Positions 4,372 through 54,539 are shown, counted from the stretch's first letter. The stretch: DNA of 64,000 bases from a virus (IMGVR_UViG_3300021255_000140:1-64000); one strand, 5' to 3'. The notes: generated from the letters alone by a model not told the origin. Translations and numbers: made by a program.

Positions 4372-6146
4372 TAGAAAACATTACTAAATCAAAGAAAGAA
4401 CTACGGGAACTTCTTACGAAGAAACCGTTTACGAGGATTTGTCCAGACGGACATTACGACCACGGATATGTTGTTGGCGAGGTGACTGAAACTGCGCTGC
4501 CACAAGACAGGTTGCGGAGAAAAATTGTCACGCAGGAGGACTTCATGCGGGAATATGACCCTGCCGGGCACATCATCAATGACAAAACTCTGTACCCAGA
4601 TGTGTGGCAGAAAAACGATGAAGACGGAAAGTGGTACATACAGGAGATACCAAGATATGCATTCTCTTTCCAGCAGATAATTCTCATAAAGCATCTGACG
4701 CACCTTTGCGGAAACGATATACAGTTTGAGCTTTCTGACAAGACGGTCAGCGAAGAGAAAAGCAAGATATACAATGCTTTCCGAAACGGATGGGCTAACA
4801 AAAACATGGAGGTAGCATGGTATCATCTCGCCAAATCCGTAAAAGCGACAGGTGATGGTGCCTTTGTCGGATATATGGATGACGGAAAATTCGGATGGAA
4901 AGTGCTGTCGTTCCTTGATGGGGACAAACTTTTTCCGCATTATGATTTCCGTAGCGGACGAATGAATTTGTTCGCAAGGTCATATAAAAACTACGATGCG
5001 GATGGACGTGTAACAAAAAAATATATAGATGTATGGGATGACGAATTTTACTATCGCTTCTGCGAGGAAGGAGACCCGTCGGTATTCGACAAAATAAAAA
5101 ACATCGCGCTTTACGGATTCTCCGCATCAGGGTACAAACTGGAAGTCAAGGAGAAACACCAGTTCGATACTATCCCGGTCGCTTATTTCCGTGATGATTT
5201 CGGTCCTTGCTGGACATTCTCAGAAGAAACGATAGAGAATTACGAGATAGCCTTTTCAAATCTTGCTCACAGCAATCACGATTTTGGTTTGCCAATTATG
5301 TATGTGAAAGGTGAAGGAAGCGAGGAGGTTACTACGCAGGATATGTCATACGCTTCCAAGATTATGATACTGCCTACTGACGGCGAAATAGGTTTCTTGA
5401 ATAGACAGGATGCAAGCAACGCTTACAAAGCTGAACTTGACAAGCTTGAGGAATGCATATACAAGCAGTCTTTTGCCGTGAAGACTCCGGAACTAAAGAG
5501 CGGTGATACACCAGGCGTCGCTTTGAAAATAATGTATTCAGATGCGTTTGAGAAGGCGATGAGCGATGCCCAGGAATATGACGGATGTGTAGATAAAATC
5601 GTTGATATTTTCATCTGGGGATATGGCGTCGAGACAGAACAAAGATTGAATTTCCTCAATACGAGTATAAGGCATTATATTGAGCCGTATATTCATGTCA
5701 ACTATTCCGAATTGATAACAAATCTCAACACTGCCGTAGTCGGTAAGTTCATCTCCCGCCAGACGGCGAGCGAGAAGAACCCTTACGCTACGCCAAACGA
5801 GTGGGAGAGAATTTGTCAGGAGGAACACGACGCACAGATGAATCAATTGCTCCTTGAAGAACAGAAACTTGAGATGCAGTCCGAAATCAATGTGGCAACA
5901 CAGGAACAGCTTTCAGATATTCAGACAGAGCAGACGATTGCTGTCAGCAATGCAGAGAAAGATGAAACATCTGAAACAAAAAGCGCAGGGCGTGCAAAAA
6001 GCAAGCATTCTGTAGCGACTGGGCGCGGTCGCAAAAGAGGAAGACCGGACATGCTTTCAAAAAGATTTGACGCAAACGGAAACGAGATAGATGAGACGAC
6101 TGGAAAAGCCAAGAGCAAGTGGGATGACTATAATAAAACTCATTGA
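4368..6146 (+). CDS. Portal protein (SPP1-like)
   Basis: ATGA-coupled to terL, 592 aa, SGDTPGVALKIMY and ISRQTA motifs typical of SPP1 gp6-like portals. Confidence 0.85.
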   Translation: MIENITKSKKELRELLTKKPFTRICPDGHYDHGYVVGEVTETALPQDRLRRKIVTQEDFMREYDPAGHIINDKTLYPDVWQKNDEDGKWYIQEIPRYAFSFQQIILIKHLTHLCGNDIQFELSDKTVSEEKSKIYNAFRNGWANKNMEVAWYHLAKSVKATGDGAFVGYMDDGKFGWKVLSFLDGDKLFPHYDFRSGRMNLFARSYKNYDADGRVTKKYIDVWDDEFYYRFCEEGDPSVFDKIKNIALYGFSASGYKLEVKEKHQFDTIPVAYFRDDFGPCWTFSEETIENYEIAFSNLAHSNHDFGLPIMYVKGEGSEEVTTQDMSYASKIMILPTDGEIGFLNRQDASNAYKAELDKLEECIYKQSFAVKTPELKSGDTPGVALKIMYSDAFEKAMSDAQEYDGCVDKIVDIFIWGYGVETEQRLNFLNTSIRHYIEPYIHVNYSELITNLNTAVVGKFISRQTASEKNPYATPNEWERICQEEHDAQMNQLLLEEQKLEMQSEINVATQEQLSDIQTEQTIAVSNAEKDETSETKSAGRAKSKHSVATGRGRKRGRPDMLSKRFDANGNEIDETTGKAKSKWDDYNKTH

Positions 6147-6148
6147 AG

Positions 6149-6754
6149 ATGAAAGATTGGACAGGAAACGGTAATTCTATCTGGAAGACTTTAGGCGCAA
6201 GCAATCACACCGATAAAGAACGTGAAACAAATGATTTTTATGCGACAGACCCCGTAGCGATTGACCTTTTGAAAAAGAAGATTGACCTCCCGGAGCAGAT
6301 TCTTGAACCTGCTTGTGGCAACGGATGTCTGTCCGAAAGGCTAAAGAAGTTAGGTCATGATGTTAAGTCTTACGACTTGATAGACAGAGGATATGGCAAG
6401 GTGCAGGATTTCTTTACGATGCATAAGCCACCGTTTGAAGGTGATTTCGCAATAGTTACTAACCCTCCTTATTCTCTGTCACTTCCTTTCGTGCTGCACT
6501 CTCTCGAACTCGTTCCGGAAGACTCATTGGTATGTATGTTCTTGAAAACAACTTTCGCAGAAGGCAAAGGTCGCTTTAATAAGTTGTTCAGCGTATATCC
6601 ACCTATAAAGGTTTTGCAATGCATAGAGCGTGTTCTATGCGCGAAGAATGCGGACTTTGACTACATGCGCAAGCACGGAGGAAGTGCAGTGAGTTACTGC
6701 TGGTGGGTATTCAAGAAAGGGTACAAGGGAAATACCACGTTAGATTGGGTTTAG
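6149..6754 (+). CDS. DNA amino (N6-adenine) methyltransferase
   Basis: NDFYAT, motif I LEPACGNG, motif IV TNPPY. Confidence 0.85.
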   Translation: MKDWTGNGNSIWKTLGASNHTDKERETNDFYATDPVAIDLLKKKIDLPEQILEPACGNGCLSERLKKLGHDVKSYDLIDRGYGKVQDFFTMHKPPFEGDFAIVTNPPYSLSLPFVLHSLELVPEDSLVCMFLKTTFAEGKGRFNKLFSVYPPIKVLQCIERVLCAKNADFDYMRKHGGSAVSYCWWVFKKGYKGNTTLDWV

Positions 6755-6757
6755 GGC

Positions 6758-8143
6758 ATGGCTGGAAGCATAAAGATAAGGCTGGATGAGTCAAGATACA
6801 TACCTCCGACGCAGGATGACATACGTGAAGCAAAGCAGTATGTCCTGCGCCGCGAGGACAATGCAAGGCAATTGAGGGATAGCGTAGACGAGGTCCTGTC
6901 CAATCTTGCTGAGGACATCGTTACTTGCTGTTATAAATACAATGTAGATCCTTACACGTTTACCATATCATCATCCTACAACGAGGATATGATGGCCGAA
7001 ATCTCAGATTTCATGGATGATGCGGAGTTGGAGATACTTGACCTCATATACGACTATTCCACAAAGGCTACGAAGGACAACGACCATATCGCGGCTCTCA
7101 TCGCATGGCTCGCCACGCTCGGACGTGGCAACCGAAATCTTCAGGACACACTTGACGGTTATCTCTACAAGACGATGAAGGACTTTGAGGCCGCTATCGC
7201 CGCCATGCGTTTCATGGGTGTGAAACTATCTGATGCTGTCACAAAGCTGAAGACCTACATGCATTCCGTCTATACAATGCCCGAAGTGCTCACTGCTTTC
7301 CGCAGACGTCAGAATTTCAACGCCGCTTACATCCGGCTCGGCGGCGTGCAGCCCGGCGCAGTCGGTCTTTCCAACAACGGCAGCACAAACGTCACAAACA
7401 TGGCGACAATCACATCGCAGATGGCGTGGATGAGAGAGCAGGGCATCCAGATGAGAGAAAGCGGTGCATCAGGATATTATCAACTCCGCGGGAGCACTTT
7501 CAACTGTGACCTGTGCGATGACGAGGTCGGTTTTCATCCCAATCTTGACGAGATAGAAACTGCACCATATCCGCATCCGCACTGCAAATGCTACAGGGTG
7601 CCGATATATCCTGTTGAGGATAGCAGTATTTCAGAAAACACGGCAAGGAAGAATCGCCGTGAGGAATACGAGAGACTTTTACAAGATCCGAATTATAAAG
7701 ATGTTGAATATAATCCTGAAAACGGAGGATTGAAAGCGACACACATATATCATAATTTTGATAAAATAGGCGGCAAGTATGAAAAGCATGTGCAAAACGC
7801 AGGATTCAAGGCAGGTCATTCTGTGATTTTCGGCGCGGAAGTAGGTGATGTTATTGGACAGAGATTTACCGAGGGCACTTGGGATGGAATGAGATTTGAG
7901 GTGGCAGGACGTGAAACAGCTACATCAATCAATATTCTAAGGGGACTTAAGCATTGCGCGTCAAAAAGAAACACAGAAATTGCGATATTAGATTTCCCCA
8001 AAGGAGGTTTTAACCTTTCAACTCTGGAAAACGGTATAAGTCGTTACCGTGGGCTTGCGCCACTAAATGACGGGCAATATCTCAAATTTAGGAAGATAAT
8101 TTGCGTGCAGGATGAAGTCGTTGTCTACGAGCAAGATTTCTAA
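6758..8143 (+). CDS. MuF/gp7-like head morphogenesis protein with C-terminal nuclease/toxin-like extension
   Basis: CDLC...PHPHCKC metal motif of MuF; about 170 aa tail (GGLKATH...EGTWDGMRFEVAG...IAILDF) resembling CdiA-CT/PD-(D/E)XK-like domains. Confidence 0.75.
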   Translation: MAGSIKIRLDESRYIPPTQDDIREAKQYVLRREDNARQLRDSVDEVLSNLAEDIVTCCYKYNVDPYTFTISSSYNEDMMAEISDFMDDAELEILDLIYDYSTKATKDNDHIAALIAWLATLGRGNRNLQDTLDGYLYKTMKDFEAAIAAMRFMGVKLSDAVTKLKTYMHSVYTMPEVLTAFRRRQNFNAAYIRLGGVQPGAVGLSNNGSTNVTNMATITSQMAWMREQGIQMRESGASGYYQLRGSTFNCDLCDDEVGFHPNLDEIETAPYPHPHCKCYRVPIYPVEDSSISENTARKNRREEYERLLQDPNYKDVEYNPENGGLKATHIYHNFDKIGGKYEKHVQNAGFKAGHSVIFGAEVGDVIGQRFTEGTWDGMRFEVAGRETATSINILRGLKHCASKRNTEIAILDFPKGGFNLSTLENGISRYRGLAPLNDGQYLKFRKIICVQDEVVVYEQDF

Positions 8144-17269: not shown

Positions 17270-17434
17270 ATGGCACGTATGAGCTTAAACAAACTTGTGG
17301 CTATAAACGCATTTAACGCGAATAACAACATCATAGCCACGACAACGAACAATGTTTTGAAACTTCGCTTGCAAGCGGAAAACGAGCGTCTTATGAAACG
17401 CTATCCATCCTTGCGCACAACTTTGTACGTATGA
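17270..17434 (+). CDS. Small hypothetical protein (54 aa)
   Basis: Hand translation MARMSLNKLVAINAFNANNN...; flanked by two AGTACGA hairpins. Confidence 0.65.
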   Translation: MARMSLNKLVAINAFNANNNIIATTTNNVLKLRLQAENERLMKRYPSLRTTLYV

Positions 17435-33035: not shown

Positions 33036-33866
33036 ATGAAACTTAAATCATTTGAAGAGGAATTTGCCTCGCGCAATCCTGACCGCACACAGATTCTCCG
33101 CTATATGCGCGAAGCTCTGGGAACAGATGAAGTAAAATGGAAAGACCTCAACACACGTAATATTACAGAAATACGTGACCACATCTGTGACACCGTCGCA
33201 GGAAACTCCGCCTGCACTTATCTCGCCATTCTAAAGGCATTTCTTGACATCTACAAGGACGATGGCGTTATCCCATGCAAAGATTTTATACGATACCTGA
33301 AAAGCAGGAGGGTGCCTTCTGAACAGGTTGTCCTCAGCGCAGAGGAAATTGACTGCATAGAAAAGTACGTCCCGAAATCTGAACATGAGCAGTGGGTAAA
33401 GGCGCAGTTCCTCTGCGAATACTACTGCATGGCTCGCACATCCGACATCCAGGACATCAGCGAAGAAAACATCGAGGATGGCTTTATAAATTACGTGTCG
33501 AAGAAAACAAAAACGCAGACTTCTGTACCACTGCACCGCAACTTTCTCAAATACCTCTCGCAGAGAGGTGAGACGCTGAAACGCGCATCATATAATCGCA
33601 TAATCAAGCGTATCTGCAAGAATGTCGGCATTACACAAGATGTAAAATTATTCTATCACGGGAAATACATCAAGAAACCGAAATACGAGTTTGTAGGCTC
33701 GCATACAGCACGCAGAAGTGCAGCAAGCGAACTCGCACGGCGTAATGTTCCTATAGCAACTATCAGTCAGTTGATGAACCACAACGGGCACATTACTACG
33801 ACACAACGCTATATCTTCGCAGACACCAGAAATCTTAATGAAAATGCGATGTCTTTCTTCAATTGA
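33036..33866 (+). CDS. Tyrosine recombinase (no arm-binding domain)
   Basis: Catalytic set intact: ARTSD (R), KKTK (K), SHTARRS (HxxR), MNH (H), TTQRY (Y); 276 aa. Confidence 0.9.
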   Translation: MKLKSFEEEFASRNPDRTQILRYMREALGTDEVKWKDLNTRNITEIRDHICDTVAGNSACTYLAILKAFLDIYKDDGVIPCKDFIRYLKSRRVPSEQVVLSAEEIDCIEKYVPKSEHEQWVKAQFLCEYYCMARTSDIQDISEENIEDGFINYVSKKTKTQTSVPLHRNFLKYLSQRGETLKRASYNRIIKRICKNVGITQDVKLFYHGKYIKKPKYEFVGSHTARRSAASELARRNVPIATISQLMNHNGHITTTQRYIFADTRNLNENAMSFFN

Positions 33867-35603: not shown

Positions 35604-38600
35604 TCATTTATTCTTCCTAAAATTCCAATTAGCGTTTATTGGTGGCAACGTTTTTTCTTCTTGCTTTCGCCCTTGATATATGTTTCCGCATTTCCTTTGA
35701 TATTCACACATTCTTAAATAATCAACTATATTTGCCATCTGGTCAAAAGAGATAGGAATATCAGTTTGTATGCTATCTTTCGGCTCAAATTTTGCAAGGA
35801 AAGCAGAAGGTTCTTGTGAAAAAACTTCATGTGCATCCATCCCTAAGATTTCTGCAATTTTATATAATTGTTCTCTCGTTTTTGCTTCTAACATAATGAT
35901 TCGTTGTTTTTTTCTTATCAAGTGCTAAATTTCCCAATTCTTCAATTTCTTTAAGTGCCTTTTCTACATGAGGTGGGTGTTTTTGTTTTATATCCACAAG
36001 ATTTCCTTGTTTATCTTGTGTGACAATAATATTAGGGATTGCGTTATCAATTACTTGACAACGTAGTTTTGCAAAGTAATCGGCAATTTCACGATGTTTC
36101 TCTATTCGCTTTATAATGTCCCATCTTTCTTCTATCTTGTATTCATTCATCTTGCAGTATCATAATCTTTCAATTTTTCGTCTATTGCTTTTAATGTGCT
36201 TTCTATCTTTACTTTTGTGCCTTCAAGCCATCCTTTGACTTCGCACAATGCAAGGTCCTGTGCCTTATAAGGGTCACTTTCGTAATAATCTTCACCCACA
36301 TTGACAGAAGCCTTATATCTTCCAGCTTCATCTTGCCAATAATCCAAATCGCAATCAACGGAAAAGCCTTTTCCTAAATGGTGAGCATATTCTTGTGTCT
36401 TATTTTTCATAATCAAATATTTTTAGTAATCTCATCTAAACCTTGTATGAATTTCTTTATTTTTCTTCTCCAATACCACCTTGTCAAAAATGTCGCATTG
36501 GCAAAATGTATAGCAAGTTCAACAAACTTTTCTGAAAGTGTCCATCTTACTTCTTGTTTGAGATTTCCTAATATGCGTTCATAAATTTCTGCATTATCCT
36601 CCATGCTTTTGCTAACAGCCTCAAAGGCAGATGCAAGTTCTTCGGCAGTTTGTTCGCTAAATTCTTTGAAAGATTCTTTATCATTAATAGTTTTGTTTAA
36701 TTCATCCATAATCAAAATTTTTCTTTGTAATATTTTACCGCATCGTCCAAGTCCTGCTTTAATTTTTTCAAGTTGGCTATTTCTTTTTCACTTAGTCTTG
36801 GGCATCCCATGAGCCAAGATTTCAAGTTGATGGTGTTTTGGTTAAATTCATAGGCGAAGGTATTGTATTCCGACCATTTGAAATATTCACCAATACTTAC
36901 GTTTTCTTCCACACAAGTGATGATTTCATCCATTCTCAATGTTTCCGTGTCAAGGAAGCAATAAACCTCACCTACCGCATTTCCAGCCCACCAACCACTA
37001 TCTTCTCCCAATTCCCACATCTTTTCCAATTCTTTGACATAGGCATTGCAAGCCTTTTCGTAGTTATTTCTGAGTTCTTGTTTATTCATTTTTGCAGATC
37101 TATTTTATTATATATTTATCCGGATTATCTTTTATCTTCCTGAGAACAGCATTTGCATCCTCAAGACGATCAAAATAAGCTACGTCCAATTTATGTTTTC
37201 TTAATGATACAGAACGTATGGATTGATTTTCTAAAAAATCGGAAATTACACAATATGACCAGTATGAAGTGATTCCCCGGAAATCAAGGTATCTTTTTCT
37301 AAAGCCGAATAAAGATGTTCTTACCAGGTAGTAAGCTTTTCTTTCTACAATTTCTTTGCCGAATATGTTTTTATGCTTTAATTCGACTGTTTCAATTTTG
37401 AGTTTCATCGGGTTTTACTATTTTGTAGGTTATATCTAATTCAATCTGTGAAGTACATTCCTGGTCCATGATATTATTAATATCTTCCCAAATCATTTTG
37501 CCAAGAGTCTGTATTTCCTCTTCCTTTTTGGCAACCAAAAATTCAGTTTCACCTAAGTCACCGGAATACCATTTGAAGGCACTTCCATTGTCAACTTGTT
37601 CAATTTCAATTTTTACTTTTTGTTCCATAATCAGAATTTCAAGTTTAGAAAGTTTATTTGTTCTTTGGTGAGCCATGTTTCATAGTTCAATGGTTTCCAG
37701 AATGTAAAGAGCATTTTGTTATAAGATAAGGAATTGTGTATATCTTCCCATGTCTGTTGTAATTGCTCATAATACTTTTGATTTTCTAAAGTAAAGTTTT
37801 CACCTGGGATTGCATCTAAGAAACCCATGCAAACATTATAGCTTTTGTGATTGATACCTGTTACAAAGTTATATACCAAACAATTCCTTATGCCGATAAT
37901 TGTTGCTCCGATAATTAGCAATAAGCCAAGTACAATAAAAAACATCATACCAATTGTTTTATTTGAAGTGTTATTTGCGCTGACCTTTCTTTTATTGGAA
38001 CAAAGTAAATATGCTTTACAGTCCAATCAGCATATTTTATACTACGTGGTGCGCCTAATCTGAAATCACTAAGCCAAATGGATTCATACTGATAATCATT
38101 ATCTGTACTATCGTCTATTTCCAATTCAATTCTTGCATCTTCATCTGATATAAATCTAAGAAAATTTCTAAGTGTCATAATTATTCATCTTTTGTTGTTC
38201 TTTTAATGCCATGCCATACTTAATAGCATCATTGTAGGTAGGTAGTCTGTGTTCTTTTTCAATGATACTTGTTGCAAAGTTTATTTCTATTTCAGCTTCT
38301 TCTTTTGTCTGTTTGTCACAAGCGGCAAGTCGATTCTTTTCAAATTGTTCAAATTGCCATTTTGCACCAGCCTTGAAAGCCTGTCTTTTACCATATACCG
38401 ATGAACACTCGTCAACCTCTGGGGCAAAACCTATGTAAGTGTTAACAGCTTCTTCCAACTTCTCGTTTACATGCTCTTCTTGCACCTCTTTCACTTCAAG
38501 TGTGTCAATGAAGTCTCTTACTATCCCTAATATTTCGTACTCAAATGTAGCATCGGCTCTTTGACGGCCACTTAAAGGGATGGCGCATACACCCTTCTTA

Positions 38601-50639: not shown

Positions 50640-51197
50640 TTAGAATAAATTAAGTTGTTCAGGTTTTCGCTGTTTGTTTCCAGCGTTGAGTGTTTGTTCA
50701 ATAAACAGATTCTTGAAAATATGGAACATGCAACTGACTACAATCGAGTTGCCCGCAAGTTTATAACAACTGCTGTTTGATACACCACTGTTCATAATCT
50801 TGTCGATGTCTTTGTCCTCCACATCCATCAGGCGAAATGCCTCGCGTGGTGTAAGTTTACGTATTCGCATCACAACAGGAAGTATGTCTTCACATAGCTG
50901 TATAGCCTCATTTCTCTCCAAAAACTGATAATTGCATATTTTGTAAATGGAGTAGTCGACTATTTCTTTAAGATAGTCAGTATGGCACCATTCGGCAGCT
51001 AAAATTTTCAGTCTTCTCTTTGTTTCATCCGTAAATGATACCGCTTTTTCTTCGCTGTGCTTAAATGCGTAAAGTTCCGGGAAAATTACCTTAAATACTT
51101 TTAGGCATTCATCTTGTGTATTCTCTATCCCGTACAACCTGCGGCAAGCACGATATACGATTCTTACTAACCTGTGAAAATTCTTATTTTGTTTCAT
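50640..51197 (-). CDS. C5-cytosine DNA methyltransferase, C-terminal part (motifs IX-X)
   Basis: RIRKLTPREAFRLM (IX), YKLAGNSIVV (X). Confidence 0.88.
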   Translation of the reverse strand: MKQNKNFHRLVRIVYRACRRLYGIENTQDECLKVFKVIFPELYAFKHSEEKAVSFTDETKRRLKILAAEWCHTDYLKEIVDYSIYKICNYQFLERNEAIQLCEDILPVVMRIRKLTPREAFRLMDVEDKDIDKIMNSGVSNSSCYKLAGNSIVVSCMFHIFKNLFIEQTLNAGNKQRKPEQLNLF

Positions 51198-51375
51198 ATA
51201 TAATTGATGTTACGTTAAAGTTTGTTAGTGTTCGCAATGTCGGAAAGACATCGTTGGAAAATGGTTCCATTGCCATTATCTCACCAAAGCCTTGACTTCC
51301 GCCCCGTATACTTGCACTGAATACCTGATTCAGATTTACCTCTGGGTTACTTCTCCTAAGTTCAATCTGTTTCAT
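51184..51375 (-). CDS. TRD-like module 16
   Basis: MKQIELRR...FPTLRT...SIIYETK. Confidence 0.7.
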   Translation of the reverse strand: MKQIELRRSNPEVNLNQVFSASIRGGSQGFGEIMAMEPFSNDVFPTLRTLTNFNVTSIIYETK

Positions 51376-51498
51376 TTGCTATAATCAAAAAGAAATTATG
51401 TTGCCAACTTGATGTGGTCACTGCAGGACTTATGCCCTTTCGGTATTCAAATCCGTAGTTGAACCCTCTTGGATAAGCCTTGATGTAGATTAAGTCTC
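51362..51498 (-). CDS. TRD-like module 15 (no ATG at junction; start uncertain)
   Basis: IKAYPRGFNYG...GISPAVTTSSWQHNFFLIIANETD. Confidence 0.55.
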
Positions 51499-51660
51499 GG
51501 CTATTACCATAACTCCCATTTCGCGAAAGCCCTGCCTTGGTGCGATGATGTTGCCCGCATAGTGGTGGGCGGTTGTTAGTGTCACTGCACACCCGTCGAC
51601 ATCGGTGTTTATAAAGACAAACTGTTTCGTTCCTATCCATTTTTTCGTACTATTTTTCAT
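51490..51660 (-). CDS. TRD-like module 14
   Basis: MKNSTKKW...INTDVDGCAVTLTT...GVMVIAET. Confidence 0.7.
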   Translation of the reverse strand: MKNSTKKWIGTKQFVFINTDVDGCAVTLTTAHHYAGNIIAPRQGFREMGVMVIAET

Positions 51661-51838
51661 ATATTTCCGCGACCAAATTATCCTTATTTGTGAATGTCGT
51701 TATCGTTCCCATTATACGATCCCCAACTGTCATATATCTGCCTTGAAATGTTGCACCATCATCACCGTAAAGATGGCGGCGCAACCGCTCTTCGGAAGTC
51801 CTTATCCTGATTATACTTTTAGCATCAGTACACTTCAT
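51650..51838 (-). CDS. TRD-like module 13
   Basis: MKCTDAK...MGTITTFTNKDNLVAEIYEK. Confidence 0.7.
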   Translation of the reverse strand: MKCTDAKSIIRIRTSEERLRRHLYGDDGATFQGRYMTVGDRIMGTITTFTNKDNLVAEIYEK

Positions 51839-51983
51839 ATAATAAAGCAACTAAATAGTCCTTTTGTACGCTTGATATGGCATTACTGAATCTGTCTGAG
51901 TTCATTTCAAGCATCTGCCGATGCTCGGAGGTATACCATTCCCCCTTGCTTCTGCCTCGTGACGCACAACTAATCGCTCTCAT
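51825..51983 (-). CDS. TRD-like module 12
   Basis: MRAISCASRGR...SNAISSVQKDYLVALLYEVY. Confidence 0.7.
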   Translation of the reverse strand: MRAISCASRGRSKGEWYTSEHRQMLEMNSDRFSNAISSVQKDYLVALLYEVY

Positions 51984-52194
51984 CCGCATACACTATCCAG
52001 TATCTTCCCAACGTTTCACTTGCAGACAGTGTCGGTTGTACTCCCATAGCAGAATATATCCTATTCGGCTGGCTATGTGTTCTGCTGAGAAATAAACTGC
52101 AATTATCAAATCTCAGTTTACCATCAAAATAACCGACAAAGACCTCTCTCTCTGATCGCGTCAGAAAATCACCGAATATACTAATCGCTTTCAT
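51970..52194 (-). CDS. TRD-like module 11
   Basis: MKAISIF...SQPNRIYSAMGVQPTLSASE...IVYADESD. Confidence 0.7.
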   Translation of the reverse strand: MKAISIFGDFLTRSEREVFVGYFDGKLRFDNCSLFLSRTHSQPNRIYSAMGVQPTLSASETLGRYWIVYADESD

Positions 52195-52342
52195 ACACCA
52201 TCAAAATTTTCGTTTCAACACCGCTATGACAGCCAACGCACAAACATGGAGATATGCCTTTTTTATCATACACCAATCCATTCTGTTGGGAGTTATACAC
52301 AAAGCCCGCAACTATTGGGTGGATAGCATCAAACCGTTTCAT
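52181..52342 (-). CDS. TRD-like module 10
   Basis: MKRFDAI...QNGLVYDKKGISPCLCVG...KILMVYESD. Confidence 0.7.
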   Translation of the reverse strand: MKRFDAIHPIVAGFVYNSQQNGLVYDKKGISPCLCVGCHSGVETKILMVYESD

Positions 52343-52496
52343 AAGCTACTGTTATTTTGGGCTGCCTATGACCGCCGCCGCTACTACAGTCAAGGGTAGG
52401 AGAGATACCGTATTTATCGTATACCCTTCCAGCTTGTGAATTGCTCGGGCTGAAGTACAGATAACCTATCTGCCGAACTCTATCAAAACGTTTCAT
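52329..52496 (-). CDS. TRD-like module 9
   Basis: MKRFDRVRQIG...SQAGRVYDKYGISPTLDCSSGGGHRQPKITVAYETV. Confidence 0.7.
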   Translation of the reverse strand: MKRFDRVRQIGYLYFSPSNSQAGRVYDKYGISPTLDCSSGGGHRQPKITVAYETV

Positions 52497-52650
52497 ATAT
52501 CACGGCTATTTTGGGAGATGTATTCCATCCTCCGCCACTGAACGTAGTGATTGTATTTGAAATAGTTTTTTTGTGCCAGTTGTCAATCTCACCTTCGGCA
52601 TTTCTCGACCACCCGTAGTAATCTATTTTGCACAGTTTAATTCGTTTCAT
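52483..52650 (-). CDS. TRD-like module 8
   Basis: MKRIKL...GWSRN...ISNTITTFSGGGWNTSPKIAVIYETF. Confidence 0.7.
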   Translation of the reverse strand: MKRIKLCKIDYYGWSRNAEGEIDNWHKKTISNTITTFSGGGWNTSPKIAVIYETF

Positions 52651-52807
52651 GACAGCACGGAATTATAGGTTGAAGATTGCCACCTGCACTATAGTCTTTA
52701 ATAGTAGGGGCTATGCCACTGGTGTCATAAACTCTCCTTCTATTCGGATTAATTCTTTTTGCAGAGTCAGTAAGATTGCAGATTTGCTTGATGTTACTCT
52801 GTTTCAT
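52637..52807 (-). CDS. TRD-like module 7
   Basis: MKQSNIKQICNL...NPNRRRVYDTSGIAPTIKD..AGGNLQPIIPCCHETN. Confidence 0.7.
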   Translation of the reverse strand: MKQSNIKQICNLTDSAKRINPNRRRVYDTSGIAPTIKDYSAGGNLQPIIPCCHETN

Positions 52808-52951
52808 ATACTACAATCACACCAGTTGCTCCAAAACCATTTTTTTCTGGAAATTAATACGCCCCGTCTTGAAATAACTTGCCTTCAAAGTCCTGCATAT
52901 ACCATCAGACGCATCATTCAATGGTACAATACGTACTCTACTTAGTTTCAA
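52794..52951 (-). pseudogene. TRD-like module 6, frameshifted at A7 tract
   Basis: (TTG)KLSRVRIVPLNDASDGICRTLKASYFK...NFQKK / NGFGATGVIVVYETE; 158 nt = 3n-1; T7 at 52840-52846. Confidence 0.65.
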
Positions 52952-53109
52952 CTGCTTGCGTAATGAGTTTATTCCCATCATCGTATCTTGCTGTAATAGT
53001 TATATGAATACCTATATGGTATGCTTGGTTGTAACTATCCAGACATACCCCCACCCATAAATGGAACATTGCCGCTCTCAATAAGTCTTAATGCTCTTTC
53101 GCTTTTCAT
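52938..53109 (-). pseudogene. TRD-like module 5, frameshifted at G5 tract
   Basis: MKSERALRLIESGNVPFMGG / VCLDSYNQ...ITITARYD...TQAVETK; 172 nt = 3n+1; C5 at 53048-53052. Confidence 0.65.
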
Positions 53110-53113
53110 CTTA

Positions 53114-53299
53114 TTAAGTCTCGATAACTTGCGTTACGTAATAATGGTTATAATGGTCAATTCTCGTCGTTACTGTAACGAACACATCATCGCGAACTTG
53201 TTGATTATATAAGTCAATGCATTGTCCCCCATGTAGCGCAATCTTGCCACTTTCAATCAGTTGCGACATTCTTATTCCGCCACTCTTACCTTTTTTCAT
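53114..53299 (-). CDS. TRD-like module 4
   Basis: MKKGKSGG...LIESGK..HGGQCIDLYNQ...VTVTTRID...TQVIET. Confidence 0.7.
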   Translation of the reverse strand: MKKGKSGGIRMSQLIESGKIALHGGQCIDLYNQQVRDDVFVTVTTRIDHYNHYYVTQVIET

Positions 53300-53426
53300 A
53301 GATTTCAATCACTTTCTGCACTCTATCAGACATGGGGTTAGAAGGAATGGTAAACGCAACGTCCTTAATGCTGATGGAAGGTTTGTTTCTGTCGCCAACC
53401 AGTTCAAAAATCTTAAAACGTTTCAT
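53286..53426 (-). CDS. TRD-like module 3
   Basis: MKRFKIFELVGDR...VAFTIPSNPMSDRVQKVIEIYEKR. Confidence 0.7.
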   Translation of the reverse strand: MKRFKIFELVGDRNKPSISIKDVAFTIPSNPMSDRVQKVIEIYEKR

Positions 53427-53581
53427 ATACTACTCCAATAGACATTTTAGGGAAATGTGCGGTGCTTATCCAGTTCGCCGGCCATTGTGTTTCATACACT
53501 GCCGTAATCGTCGGAGATAAACCATCTGAGGTCGTCGGTAGTCCGATACGTCGGATGGGGGGTAAATCTATTCTGCCTCAT
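53413..53581 (-). pseudogene. TRD-like module 2, frameshifted at C6 tract
   Basis: MRQNRFTP / IRRIGLPTTSDGLSPTITAVYE...HFPKMSIGVVYETF; 169 nt = 3n+1; G6 at 53557-53562. Confidence 0.65.
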
Positions 53582-53732
53582 ATATATACATCCAACAGCC
53601 TTTCGGATAGTGCTTAAGAGTTATATAATCCTTTATTGCTGCGAACTCATACCTTGTATTCAATGTTGGAAAAACAGTGTCCTTGCAGACATTCTGAGGC
53701 TTAATTCTACTGAGCAATAAAGAAGTTTTCAA
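53568..53732 (-). CDS. TRD-like module 1
   Basis: (TTG)KTSLLL...QNVCKDTVFPTLNTRYE...HYPKGCWMYIYEAE. Confidence 0.7.
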   Translation of the reverse strand: MKTSLLLSRIKPQNVCKDTVFPTLNTRYEFAAIKDYITLKHYPKGCWMYIYEAE

Positions 53733-54498
53733 AATCCTCGTTTTTTTCTTCCGGAAGTTTATTCTTTTTGTCATCCTCTTCGAGACTTTTCCTGCAAAAT
53801 CTTGCAAGCATTTCGTCAGAAAGAAAATACCTCTCGTCAACGTCTTCTTCTAAACAATCGGCAAGGCAAAGTTCAAGTGGAAAAGGCTTTGGAAAATCAT
53901 AAGATGGATCTGGTTCGTCCAGTGTCCTCAATACAGACACGCAAAATACTCTTTCTCTGTTTTGCGGAACACCATAGTGTTTTGCATTGAGTATCTGCCA
54001 GAAATTTGCATATCCATACTTTTCAAGCAATTTCAGCCACTCGTTGAAATACGGCATGAATTTCTTTTGTGTCAGAGCCTTTACATTCTCCATGAGCAGA
54101 TATTTCGGGCGCTTGATGTCGATGGCTTTTTCACACTCCCAGAGTAGGCTCGACCTTGTCCCGCTACCTTTTGCCAGTCCTGCCTGACGTCCAGCATTGG
54201 AAACGCTTTGGCAGGGGAAAGAAAAAGTAAACAAATCGAAATCAGGCACATCCTGCCACATTATCTTAGTAATGTCTCCGTAATTCTTACTCCCGTCAGG
54301 GAACAATGCTCTATTTGCGATGACGGCAGGCTGATTGTCTATCTGCTGTTTGCTTTCAGGGTCAAATTCAGCCCATCCTACTCTCACAAAGTCAAAATTG
54401 GGATATGTTTCTTTGAGCCTTTTTAACGCTAATGCCTGGCTTGAATAGCCCGCAAAAGCTTCAAATACCCGTAATGGGTTCTTTTTATTGTATACCAT
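53707..54498 (-). CDS. C5-cytosine DNA methyltransferase, N-terminal catalytic part (motifs I-VIII)
   Basis: FEAFAGYSS (I), GDIT (III), SFPCQ (IV, catalytic Cys), MENV (VI), YGVPQNRERVF (VIII); stops before TRD and motifs IX-X. Confidence 0.92.
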   Translation of the reverse strand: MVYNKKNPLRVFEAFAGYSSQALALKRLKETYPNFDFVRVGWAEFDPESKQQIDNQPAVIANRALFPDGSKNYGDITKIMWQDVPDFDLFTFSFPCQSVSNAGRQAGLAKGSGTRSSLLWECEKAIDIKRPKYLLMENVKALTQKKFMPYFNEWLKLLEKYGYANFWQILNAKHYGVPQNRERVFCVSVLRTLDEPDPSYDFPKPFPLELCLADCLEEDVDERYFLSDEMLARFCRKSLEEDDKKNKLPEEKNEDFENFFIAQ

Positions 54499-54539
54499 TG
54501 TTTTATGTGTTACATTACTAAGATAATGATTCATTCTTG

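Follow-up and report, generated by a model that had tools for sequence, protein, structure and literature searches.

A putative multispecific C5 cytosine DNA methyltransferase of a rumen phage, encoded as a split core and an array of separate target-recognition modules

Introduction

How could a DNA methyltransferase find its target when neither half of its core holds a target-recognition domain (TRD)? The question is raised by a locus at 50640-54498 of IMGVR_UViG_3300021255_000140:1-64000, a stretch of viral DNA of 64,000 nucleotides (nt), hereafter the window. Here the two halves of a C5 cytosine DNA methyltransferase, the N-part and the C-part, are encoded on the minus strand on either side of an array of 16 small TRD-like cassettes (m01 to m16). 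The host record is a 103,512-bp rumen phage genome with direct terminal repeats, judged 100% complete, and near-identical DNA was found in gut and bovine gut metagenomes from 12 studies.

C5 methyltransferases are textbook single-chain enzymes. To our knowledge, the only natural exceptions are two-chain enzymes, and the only multispecific members carry their TRDs in one polypeptide. We consider it probable that the present locus encodes a multispecific C5 methyltransferase that is split into separately translated pieces, on whose core free TRDs dock singly, and that it has an anti-restriction role. A preliminary description of the locus, made from the sequence alone, knew of no system with such a layout; this agrees with our literature search, which, with most subscription journals outside its coverage, found no paper on separately encoded C5 TRDs.

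Results

The N-part (53707-54498, minus strand) carries motifs I-VIII. It matches positions 2-225 of the 324 positions of the PF00145 profile (E 2.8e-45), and its translation shows F-P-C-Q, with the catalytic Pro-Cys, as well as E-N-V and Q-N-R-E-R. The C-part (50640-51197, minus strand) consists of an N-terminal extension, predicted to be helical over its first ~100 residues, followed by motifs IX and X, which match PF00145 positions 269-322 (E 2.1e-6; 27.9 bits against a cut-off of 22) and show R-K-L-T-P-R-E and G-N-S in translation. The preliminary description had placed the two sets of motifs in these same open reading frames (ORFs), and the profile matches bear it out. Since the two matches leave out positions 225-269, the TRD is missing from both halves. 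Where a C5 methylase has its TRD in the same chain, the TRDs of this locus are encoded in separate ORFs.

It had also been proposed that 16 TRD-like mini-ORFs tile the space between the two halves. All 16 TRD cores could be located there, on the minus strand from 53774 to 51184, but as ORFs only 12 are intact with their own ATG in this assembly; three (m02, m05 and m06) are broken at homopolymer runs and one (m15) has no nearby start. The first cassette, m01 (53568-53774, core FPTLNT), begins within the N-part gene, with an ATG in the +1 frame 67 nt short of that gene's 3' end, and in most relatives an in-frame ATG of the first cassette likewise lies 37-67 nt upstream of the N-part stop. There the N-part has an acidic linker and then a conserved D-F-E-N-F-F-x-A-Q tail (53707-53740, minus strand). 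The substitutions by which the tails of relatives differ are silent when read as N-part but not when read as the overlapping cassette; therefore the N-part tail is the constrained reading of that overlap. The other intact cassettes, all on the minus strand, are m03 (53286-53426, AFTIPS), m04 (53114-53299, FVTVTT), m07 (52637-52807, APTIKD), m08 (52483-52650, SNTITT), m09 (52329-52496, SPTLDC), m10 (52181-52342, SPCLCV), m11 (51970-52194, QPTLSA), m12 (51825-51983, SNAISS), m13 (51650-51838, MGTITT), m14 (51490-51660, AVTLTT) and m16 (51184-51375, FPTLRT). In m02 (53413-53581, minus strand, SPTITA) the frame of the ATG and that of the TRD are split by a C6 run (53557-53562), so that the cassette is off here; m05 (52938-53109, minus strand, HITITA) is broken at a G3TG5 run (53048-53056) and m06 (52794-52981, minus strand, CRTLKA) at an A7 run near 52840-52846. 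For m15 (51362-51496, minus strand, SPAVTT) the only in-frame ATG is at 51640, giving a 92-amino acid (aa) ORF (51362-51640, minus strand) whose first 48 residues lie over m14 in another frame.

The cassettes have fused counterparts. Single-chain methylases of 422-537 aa (L011, L012, L016 and L024 in our numbering of related loci) carry tandem TRDs that are homologous to the free modules, which upholds the kinship to multispecific enzymes that had been suggested. A Pfam scan of eight modules gave no meaningful family and no match to Methylase_S (HsdS) at E<=1, and a module profile run against the sequences of solved structures hit only the TRD end of a CG-specific methylase (4dkj / 8c56), without significance (E 0.64).

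IMG/VR, ENA and NCBI together yielded at least 13 non-redundant arrays of the same layout, with N- and C-parts 40-63% identical to those of the window. The array family is widespread in gut and rumen metagenomes, and its mini-genes fall below the usual thresholds of gene calling and annotation. A comparison of modules across related phages, as had been called for, revealed that cassette families recur in similar order in diverged arrays: that of m04 in at least 10 arrays, that of m06 in nearly all, and m13 as the last or near-last cassette in most relatives. The 120 related loci comprise 70 single-chain forms, 15 arrays of the present family and 35 loci split in other ways, the last including an N-part with a multi-TRD C chain of ~400 aa (e.g. 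L119 and L127) and other array lineages (e.g. L099). In L099 (1800-4500) the array is ~2.9 kb long, the C-part has 142 aa and no helical extension, and nearly every cassette changes frame at a G run. Some C-parts of the present family have the last TRD joined to them in frame and still keep the Met of the junction. A blastn search with the locus against annotated phage records gave a short motif-level match only and no related locus.

The C-part extension goes with the split form: it is present in 15 of 15 loci of the present array family and in 0 of 70 single-chain loci, and was not detected in the 35 other split loci. A search of 1.84 billion representatives recovered it in 20 clusters at 50% identity; these contain proteins of 89-261 aa only, none of them a single-chain methylase. 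Stand-alone C-parts of ~181 aa form at least 120 clusters at 90% identity. A fold search with the C-part model against the PDB gave no match at E<=0.001, the extension resembling generic helical bundles only.

Are the stops that separate the pieces real? The preliminary description had allowed that they might be assembly errors. This is ruled out by independent contigs and by diverged relatives, in which the stops are conserved. A single 36x contig from a run of another study (X7) spans 50640-54498 with 81 substitutions and 3 one-base indels, the latter all in runs within cassettes, and a contig of run X4 agrees with the stops and frames of the window. The sequencing runs used here (X4, X6, X7 and X19) were examined as assembled contigs. 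No RNA data set was listed among the sources of near-identical sequence; despite its metatranscriptomic label X19 is probably DNA, and nothing on expression can be read from its contigs. An alternative genetic code or readthrough can be dismissed as well, because TAA, TAG and TGA are all used at the junctions and the frame changes each time, so that no alternative code fuses the pieces.

The junctions themselves are stereotyped. A (T)ATGAAAC sequence reads Y-E-T in the frame that is ending and M-K in the next (+1) frame, with the stop 1-2 codons further on, which results in an overlap of 11 or 14 nt; the C-part begins at a junction of the same type. Over the 13 non-redundant arrays, the next ATG is in the +1 frame at 72 of 94 candidate junctions, with a 14-nt overlap at 56 and an 11-nt overlap at 16. 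The pattern is no product of chance: 3.5 copies of TATGAAAC would be expected in the window, and it holds 16. Ten sites lie outside the array, on the plus strand at 17392, 22082, 23705, 24636, 30633 and 33035 and on the minus strand at 37677, 40828, 42442 and 60017. All ten are on the local coding strand, as indicated by composition skew, and TATGAAAC may be a general overlap-start context of this phage.

Codon usage at the junctions tells which feature is being maintained. The junction Tyr codon is TAT in 73 cases and TAC in 2, as against 51.6% TAT in the long ORFs of the same genomes (P=7e-19), and where the position holds a residue other than Tyr the codon is still mostly xAT. This bias therefore indicates that the cassette ATG itself is under selection, which models of frameshifting or of silent cassettes do not predict. 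The cassettes are also under purifying selection, and the neutral evolution that had been raised as a possibility is not what is seen. The ratio of nonsynonymous to synonymous substitution rates (dN/dS) of orthologous cassettes is 0.03-0.28 per family (0.03-0.12 for m01, 0.09-0.28 for m02 and 0.03-0.05 for m13) and 0.09-0.19 pooled, whereas overlapping spurious frames give at least 0.6. These values were taken from closer pairs among L068, L070, L072 and L074, because dS is saturated between the window and its nearest deposited relatives.

Since every junction moves to the +1 frame, it could be argued that the cassettes are joined in translation by +1 shifts, at the junctions or at runs within cassettes, into a single-chain multispecific methylase, or that the N-part is fused in this manner to the first TRD. 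Single-chain relatives with the same TRD types do exist, a few junctions end in the shift-prone TTT-TGA or GTT-TGA, and out-of-frame versions of m02 (with C6, C8 or C9) could mostly be rescued by a +1 slip on CCC-C. However, the sequence from ATG to stop is neither conserved nor slippery at most junctions, and the preference for TAT over TAC selects an ATG for which a frameshift has no need. Sixteen serial shifts would leave almost no full-length product, the C-part would still begin at its own ATG, and m02 of L073 would need a shift in the opposite direction. The stop of the N-part, CAG-TAG, is not in a shift-prone context, and a programmed +1 frameshift at this site was rejected because the context is not slippery. 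Altogether, we regard joining in translation as rather unlikely.

Would a free module fit between the two halves? The prediction of such complexes had been proposed as a check, and a complex of N-part, C-part and module m09, which is 67-83% identical to its orthologues in L068, L070, L072 and L073, was modelled with an alignment of relatives for each chain, in three runs and with three controls. The model scored 0.87 and the best of the controls 0.01. The score mark is one reached by 58 of 80 solved complexes and by 2 of 110 mismatched pairs, counts that hold only roughly for this complex since its own alignments were supplied. At least 87% of the contacts were shared among the three runs, and the predicted local distance difference test (pLDDT) of the partners was 76-78. 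In the model, module residues 25-37, with the T-L loop, contact the N-part at 178-182 (motif VIII) and at 208-216; residues 45-55, the last strand and tail, contact C-part residues 106-115, the strand before motif IX; and module residues 1-7 and C-part residues 8-32, in the helical extension, lie within the interface. Docking through the C-terminal strand, as predicted here, is what had been foreseen.

Close strains differ in the state of single cassettes. The cassette m06, broken in the window, has one extra base at its A7 run in X4, X7 and X19, which restores the usual ending of the V-V-Y-E-T-E type. In m05, one-base deletions restore the frame in X4 and X7, and a minor X7 contig has a 2-base deletion, so that two tract lengths are seen in one sample. 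Conversely, m10, intact in the window, is broken in X7 by a change from A6 to A5 at 52259. The run of m02 is C6 in the window, C9 in X4, C8 in four relatives and C7, which is in frame, in L072; this cassette may be brought into frame by changes in run length or by a +1 slip at CCC-C. Hence, at m02, m05, m06 and m10 the frame is toggled by run length between close strains or within a sample, as it is in contingency loci.

Whole cassettes also come and go between close strains. In X6, 930 nt are skipped between two identical 15-nt junctions, which deletes m03-m08 exactly, and in X19 the entire m05 cassette is gone (skip 52933-53092). L078, L079 and L080 are 98-99% identical and differ by whole cassettes. 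In X6 and in L153, a strain 97-99% identical, m15 is absent and m14 and m16 form a hybrid, joined via a shared 20-nt segment that codes for Q-G-F-x-E (window 51278-51519; L153:553-572).

That near-identical strains differ by precise deletions and by a hybrid cassette, with breakpoints in repeated junctions or shared segments, is also what would be expected if most cassettes were a silent reservoir, of which only one adjoining a core half is used while recombination at the junction repeats moves or deletes cassettes, as in antigenic variation. The startless m15 and the fusion of the last TRD to the C-part in some relatives would fit this explanation too. Yet silent cassettes would need no selected starts and stops. 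All repeats are direct, so that recombination only deletes, and cassette order is largely kept across diverged phages. We judge a silent reservoir to be unlikely. Finally, although three cassettes are frame-broken and one is startless here, a decaying pseudogene of a multispecific methylase that has accumulated stops and frameshifts is highly improbable, given the stereotyped stop/start junction conserved in at least 13 diverged arrays, the dN/dS of 0.03-0.28, the at least 120 clusters of stand-alone C-parts with their own extension, and the intact state of the broken cassettes in sister strains.

A further element of variation, which like the loss of cassettes at junction repeats is absent from the preliminary description, lies in the N-part gene itself. 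Two inverted-repeat arms of 17 nt, 100% complementary in the window, are situated in the 5' leader (54512-54528) and inside the codons for D-I-T-K-I-M (54259-54275). They enclose a segment (54276-54511, minus strand) that holds the start codon and about codons 1-74 of the N-part, including motif I. In five relatives (L068, L072, L006, L073 and L081) arms of 19-26 nt are conserved, each pair co-varying, and in the last three of these the segment was found inverted. The inverted junction is seen in one contig of run X6, in which 54275 is followed directly by the minus-strand letters of 54511-54499, and another contig of that run crosses 54246-54498 in the orientation of the window. Conserved flanking inverted repeats are therefore accompanied by both orientations in nature, as in an inverton. 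No serine recombinase was found in the genome. Two tyrosine recombinase genes (PF00589, E 5e-14 and 7e-14), at 33036-33866 (+) of the window and at G000:C1:64694-64879 (+), are by sequence candidate invertases or integrases; neither is linked to the switch.

Upstream of the locus, at higher coordinates, lie a DUF3127 gene and an SNF2-type helicase gene; in relatives the gene order is DnaB helicase, N6/N4 methylase, C5 N-part, array and C-part. An ARAGORN scan of the window gave no tRNA. Two other arrangements of the core were observed among related loci. The N-part of L077 (1637-3439) is a single 601-aa ORF with a Hint/intein domain inserted at about residues 87-443, beside the catalytic Pro-Cys motif. 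In L003, L004, L005, L008, L009 and L010 (~5842-6800) a motif X-like match stands just upstream of the N-part and no C-part was found within the following 6 kb, a sequence arrangement that suggests a permuted core.

Discussion

The findings are consistent with an enzyme that is assembled from separately made chains, and each of the computational checks named in the preliminary description, or an equivalent of it, favoured that reading. Each cassette would be translated from an ATG located 11 or 14 nt before the preceding stop, and a ribosome that terminates on one cassette would probably restart on the next. Each would yield one TRD of ~45-75 aa, while the N-part would provide motifs I-VIII with the catalytic Cys and the C-part motifs IX-X with the extension. 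A single free module at a time would slot in between N-part and C-part. Motif VIII of the N-part would be met by the module's T-L loop, the C-part strand that precedes motif IX by its last strand and acidic tail, and the helical extension by its N-terminus. Docking would rebuild an ordinary C5 methylase with a specificity set by the bound module, and the resulting mixture of holoenzymes could methylate many sequences and so protect phage DNA from many restriction enzymes.

Several points weigh against this scheme. The success of the three-chain model may reflect the likeness of the three chains together to solved single-chain C5 methylases; it shows likeness, not binding. In those relatives whose C-part has a fused TRD, free modules would compete with the tethered one. 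The m02 cassette is off-frame in 6 of 8 versions and yet under purifying selection, and m15 is startless, so some cassettes need frequent tract switching, frameshifting or another route. The differences in run length need not be programmed switches: they could be plain mutations that separate strains and are tolerated where a cassette is dispensable. The two indels of this 2013 assembly could also be assembly errors.

If free modules do dock on the split core, variation would act on it in three layers. Individual cassettes would be turned on and off by homopolymer runs; recombination between the junction repeats would delete cassettes or fuse them into hybrids; and the switch between the 17-nt inverted repeats would flip the 5' end of the N-part gene and turn the whole enzyme off. 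We tentatively propose, as a possibility that we hold with some doubt, a three-layer programmable anti-restriction methylome, in which modules alternate on the split core by way of the docking domain, each gated by a hypermutable run, and the enzyme as a whole is gated by inversion. Were this so, the phage population would always hold differing m5C patterns, a hedge against both the restriction enzymes that methylation blocks and those that cut methylated DNA.

If the scheme of free docking modules is true, recognition by C5 methylases can be supplied in trans by free, exchangeable TRD subunits, as in Type I systems. The persistence of large gut and rumen phages among restriction-rich hosts would then find an explanation, and the engineering of programmable m5C writers would gain a ready set of small recognition modules along with the core that fits them. 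The switches of single modules, together with the inversion switch, would add a new instance of viral phase variation.

The nearest known systems are the multispecific C5 methyltransferases of temperate Bacillus phages, M.SPRI, M.Phi3TI, M.Rho11sI and M.H2I (Trautner et al. 1996 EMBO J 15:1434, as cited in PMC12707154). Like the present locus, they are phage-encoded and have one core with several short TRDs (~40-60 aa, with a T-L/I/V core) between motifs VIII and IX; they are presumed to shield the phage from many restriction systems, and the same is presumed here. In a 2025 review (PMC12707154), the arraying of all phage TRDs in one polypeptide is given as the only arrangement. The 16 different cassettes of the window likewise provide several tandem TRDs for one core. 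In contrast to the Bacillus phage enzymes, core and TRDs are not in one polypeptide: a stop and a frame change mark every junction, in independent assemblies and relatives as well; each TRD is delimited by a start and a stop of its own; the core consists of two chains, with an extra helical domain in the C-part; and there are up to at least 16 modules.

For the division of the core there is precedent in two-chain enzymes. M.AquI and M.EcoHK31I have two chains, and fragments of M.BspRI, M.BsuRI, M.HhaI and M.SssI complement one another, from which it follows that a C5 methylase cut in or near its variable region can assemble from separate chains (summarised in PMC3404938). As in M.AquI, the halves of the present enzyme carry motifs I-VIII and IX-X, the core being split at the same place. 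Unlike M.AquI, whose variable region is shared between the chains, and M.EcoHK31I, whose TRD is on the large chain, neither half here holds a TRD; and neither of those two enzymes has a free TRD chain or alternative TRDs.

With the HsdS subunits of Type I systems (PMC7672463, PMC7641763) the locus shares recognition on a separate chain that plugs (here, by proposal) into a methylase core, and specificity that varies within populations. The sequences are unrelated, with no Pfam match in our scan, and HsdS serves N6-adenine methylases and has two TRDs per chain. Moreover, HsdS is varied by inversion between inverted repeats, whereas the array would supply alternatives that are co-expressed.

The variation of the locus also has counterparts. 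Methyltransferases that are phase-variable through simple repeats are known (PMC4889913), and poly-G tracts have been described in Campylobacter phage genes (Sorensen et al. 2021 Cell Rep 35:109214, as cited in PMC12823448). As in such contingency loci, short homopolymer runs in coding sequence change length and toggle the frame; unlike them, the runs here are of 5-9 nt and of mixed base, and would gate single specificity modules instead of a whole gene. Similarly, the switch resembles the intragenic invertons of Bacteroidales (PMC10028968), in which short inverted repeats flank a coding segment that occurs in both orientations in populations, but it resides in a phage, and the segment that it flips holds a methylase's start codon and motif I.

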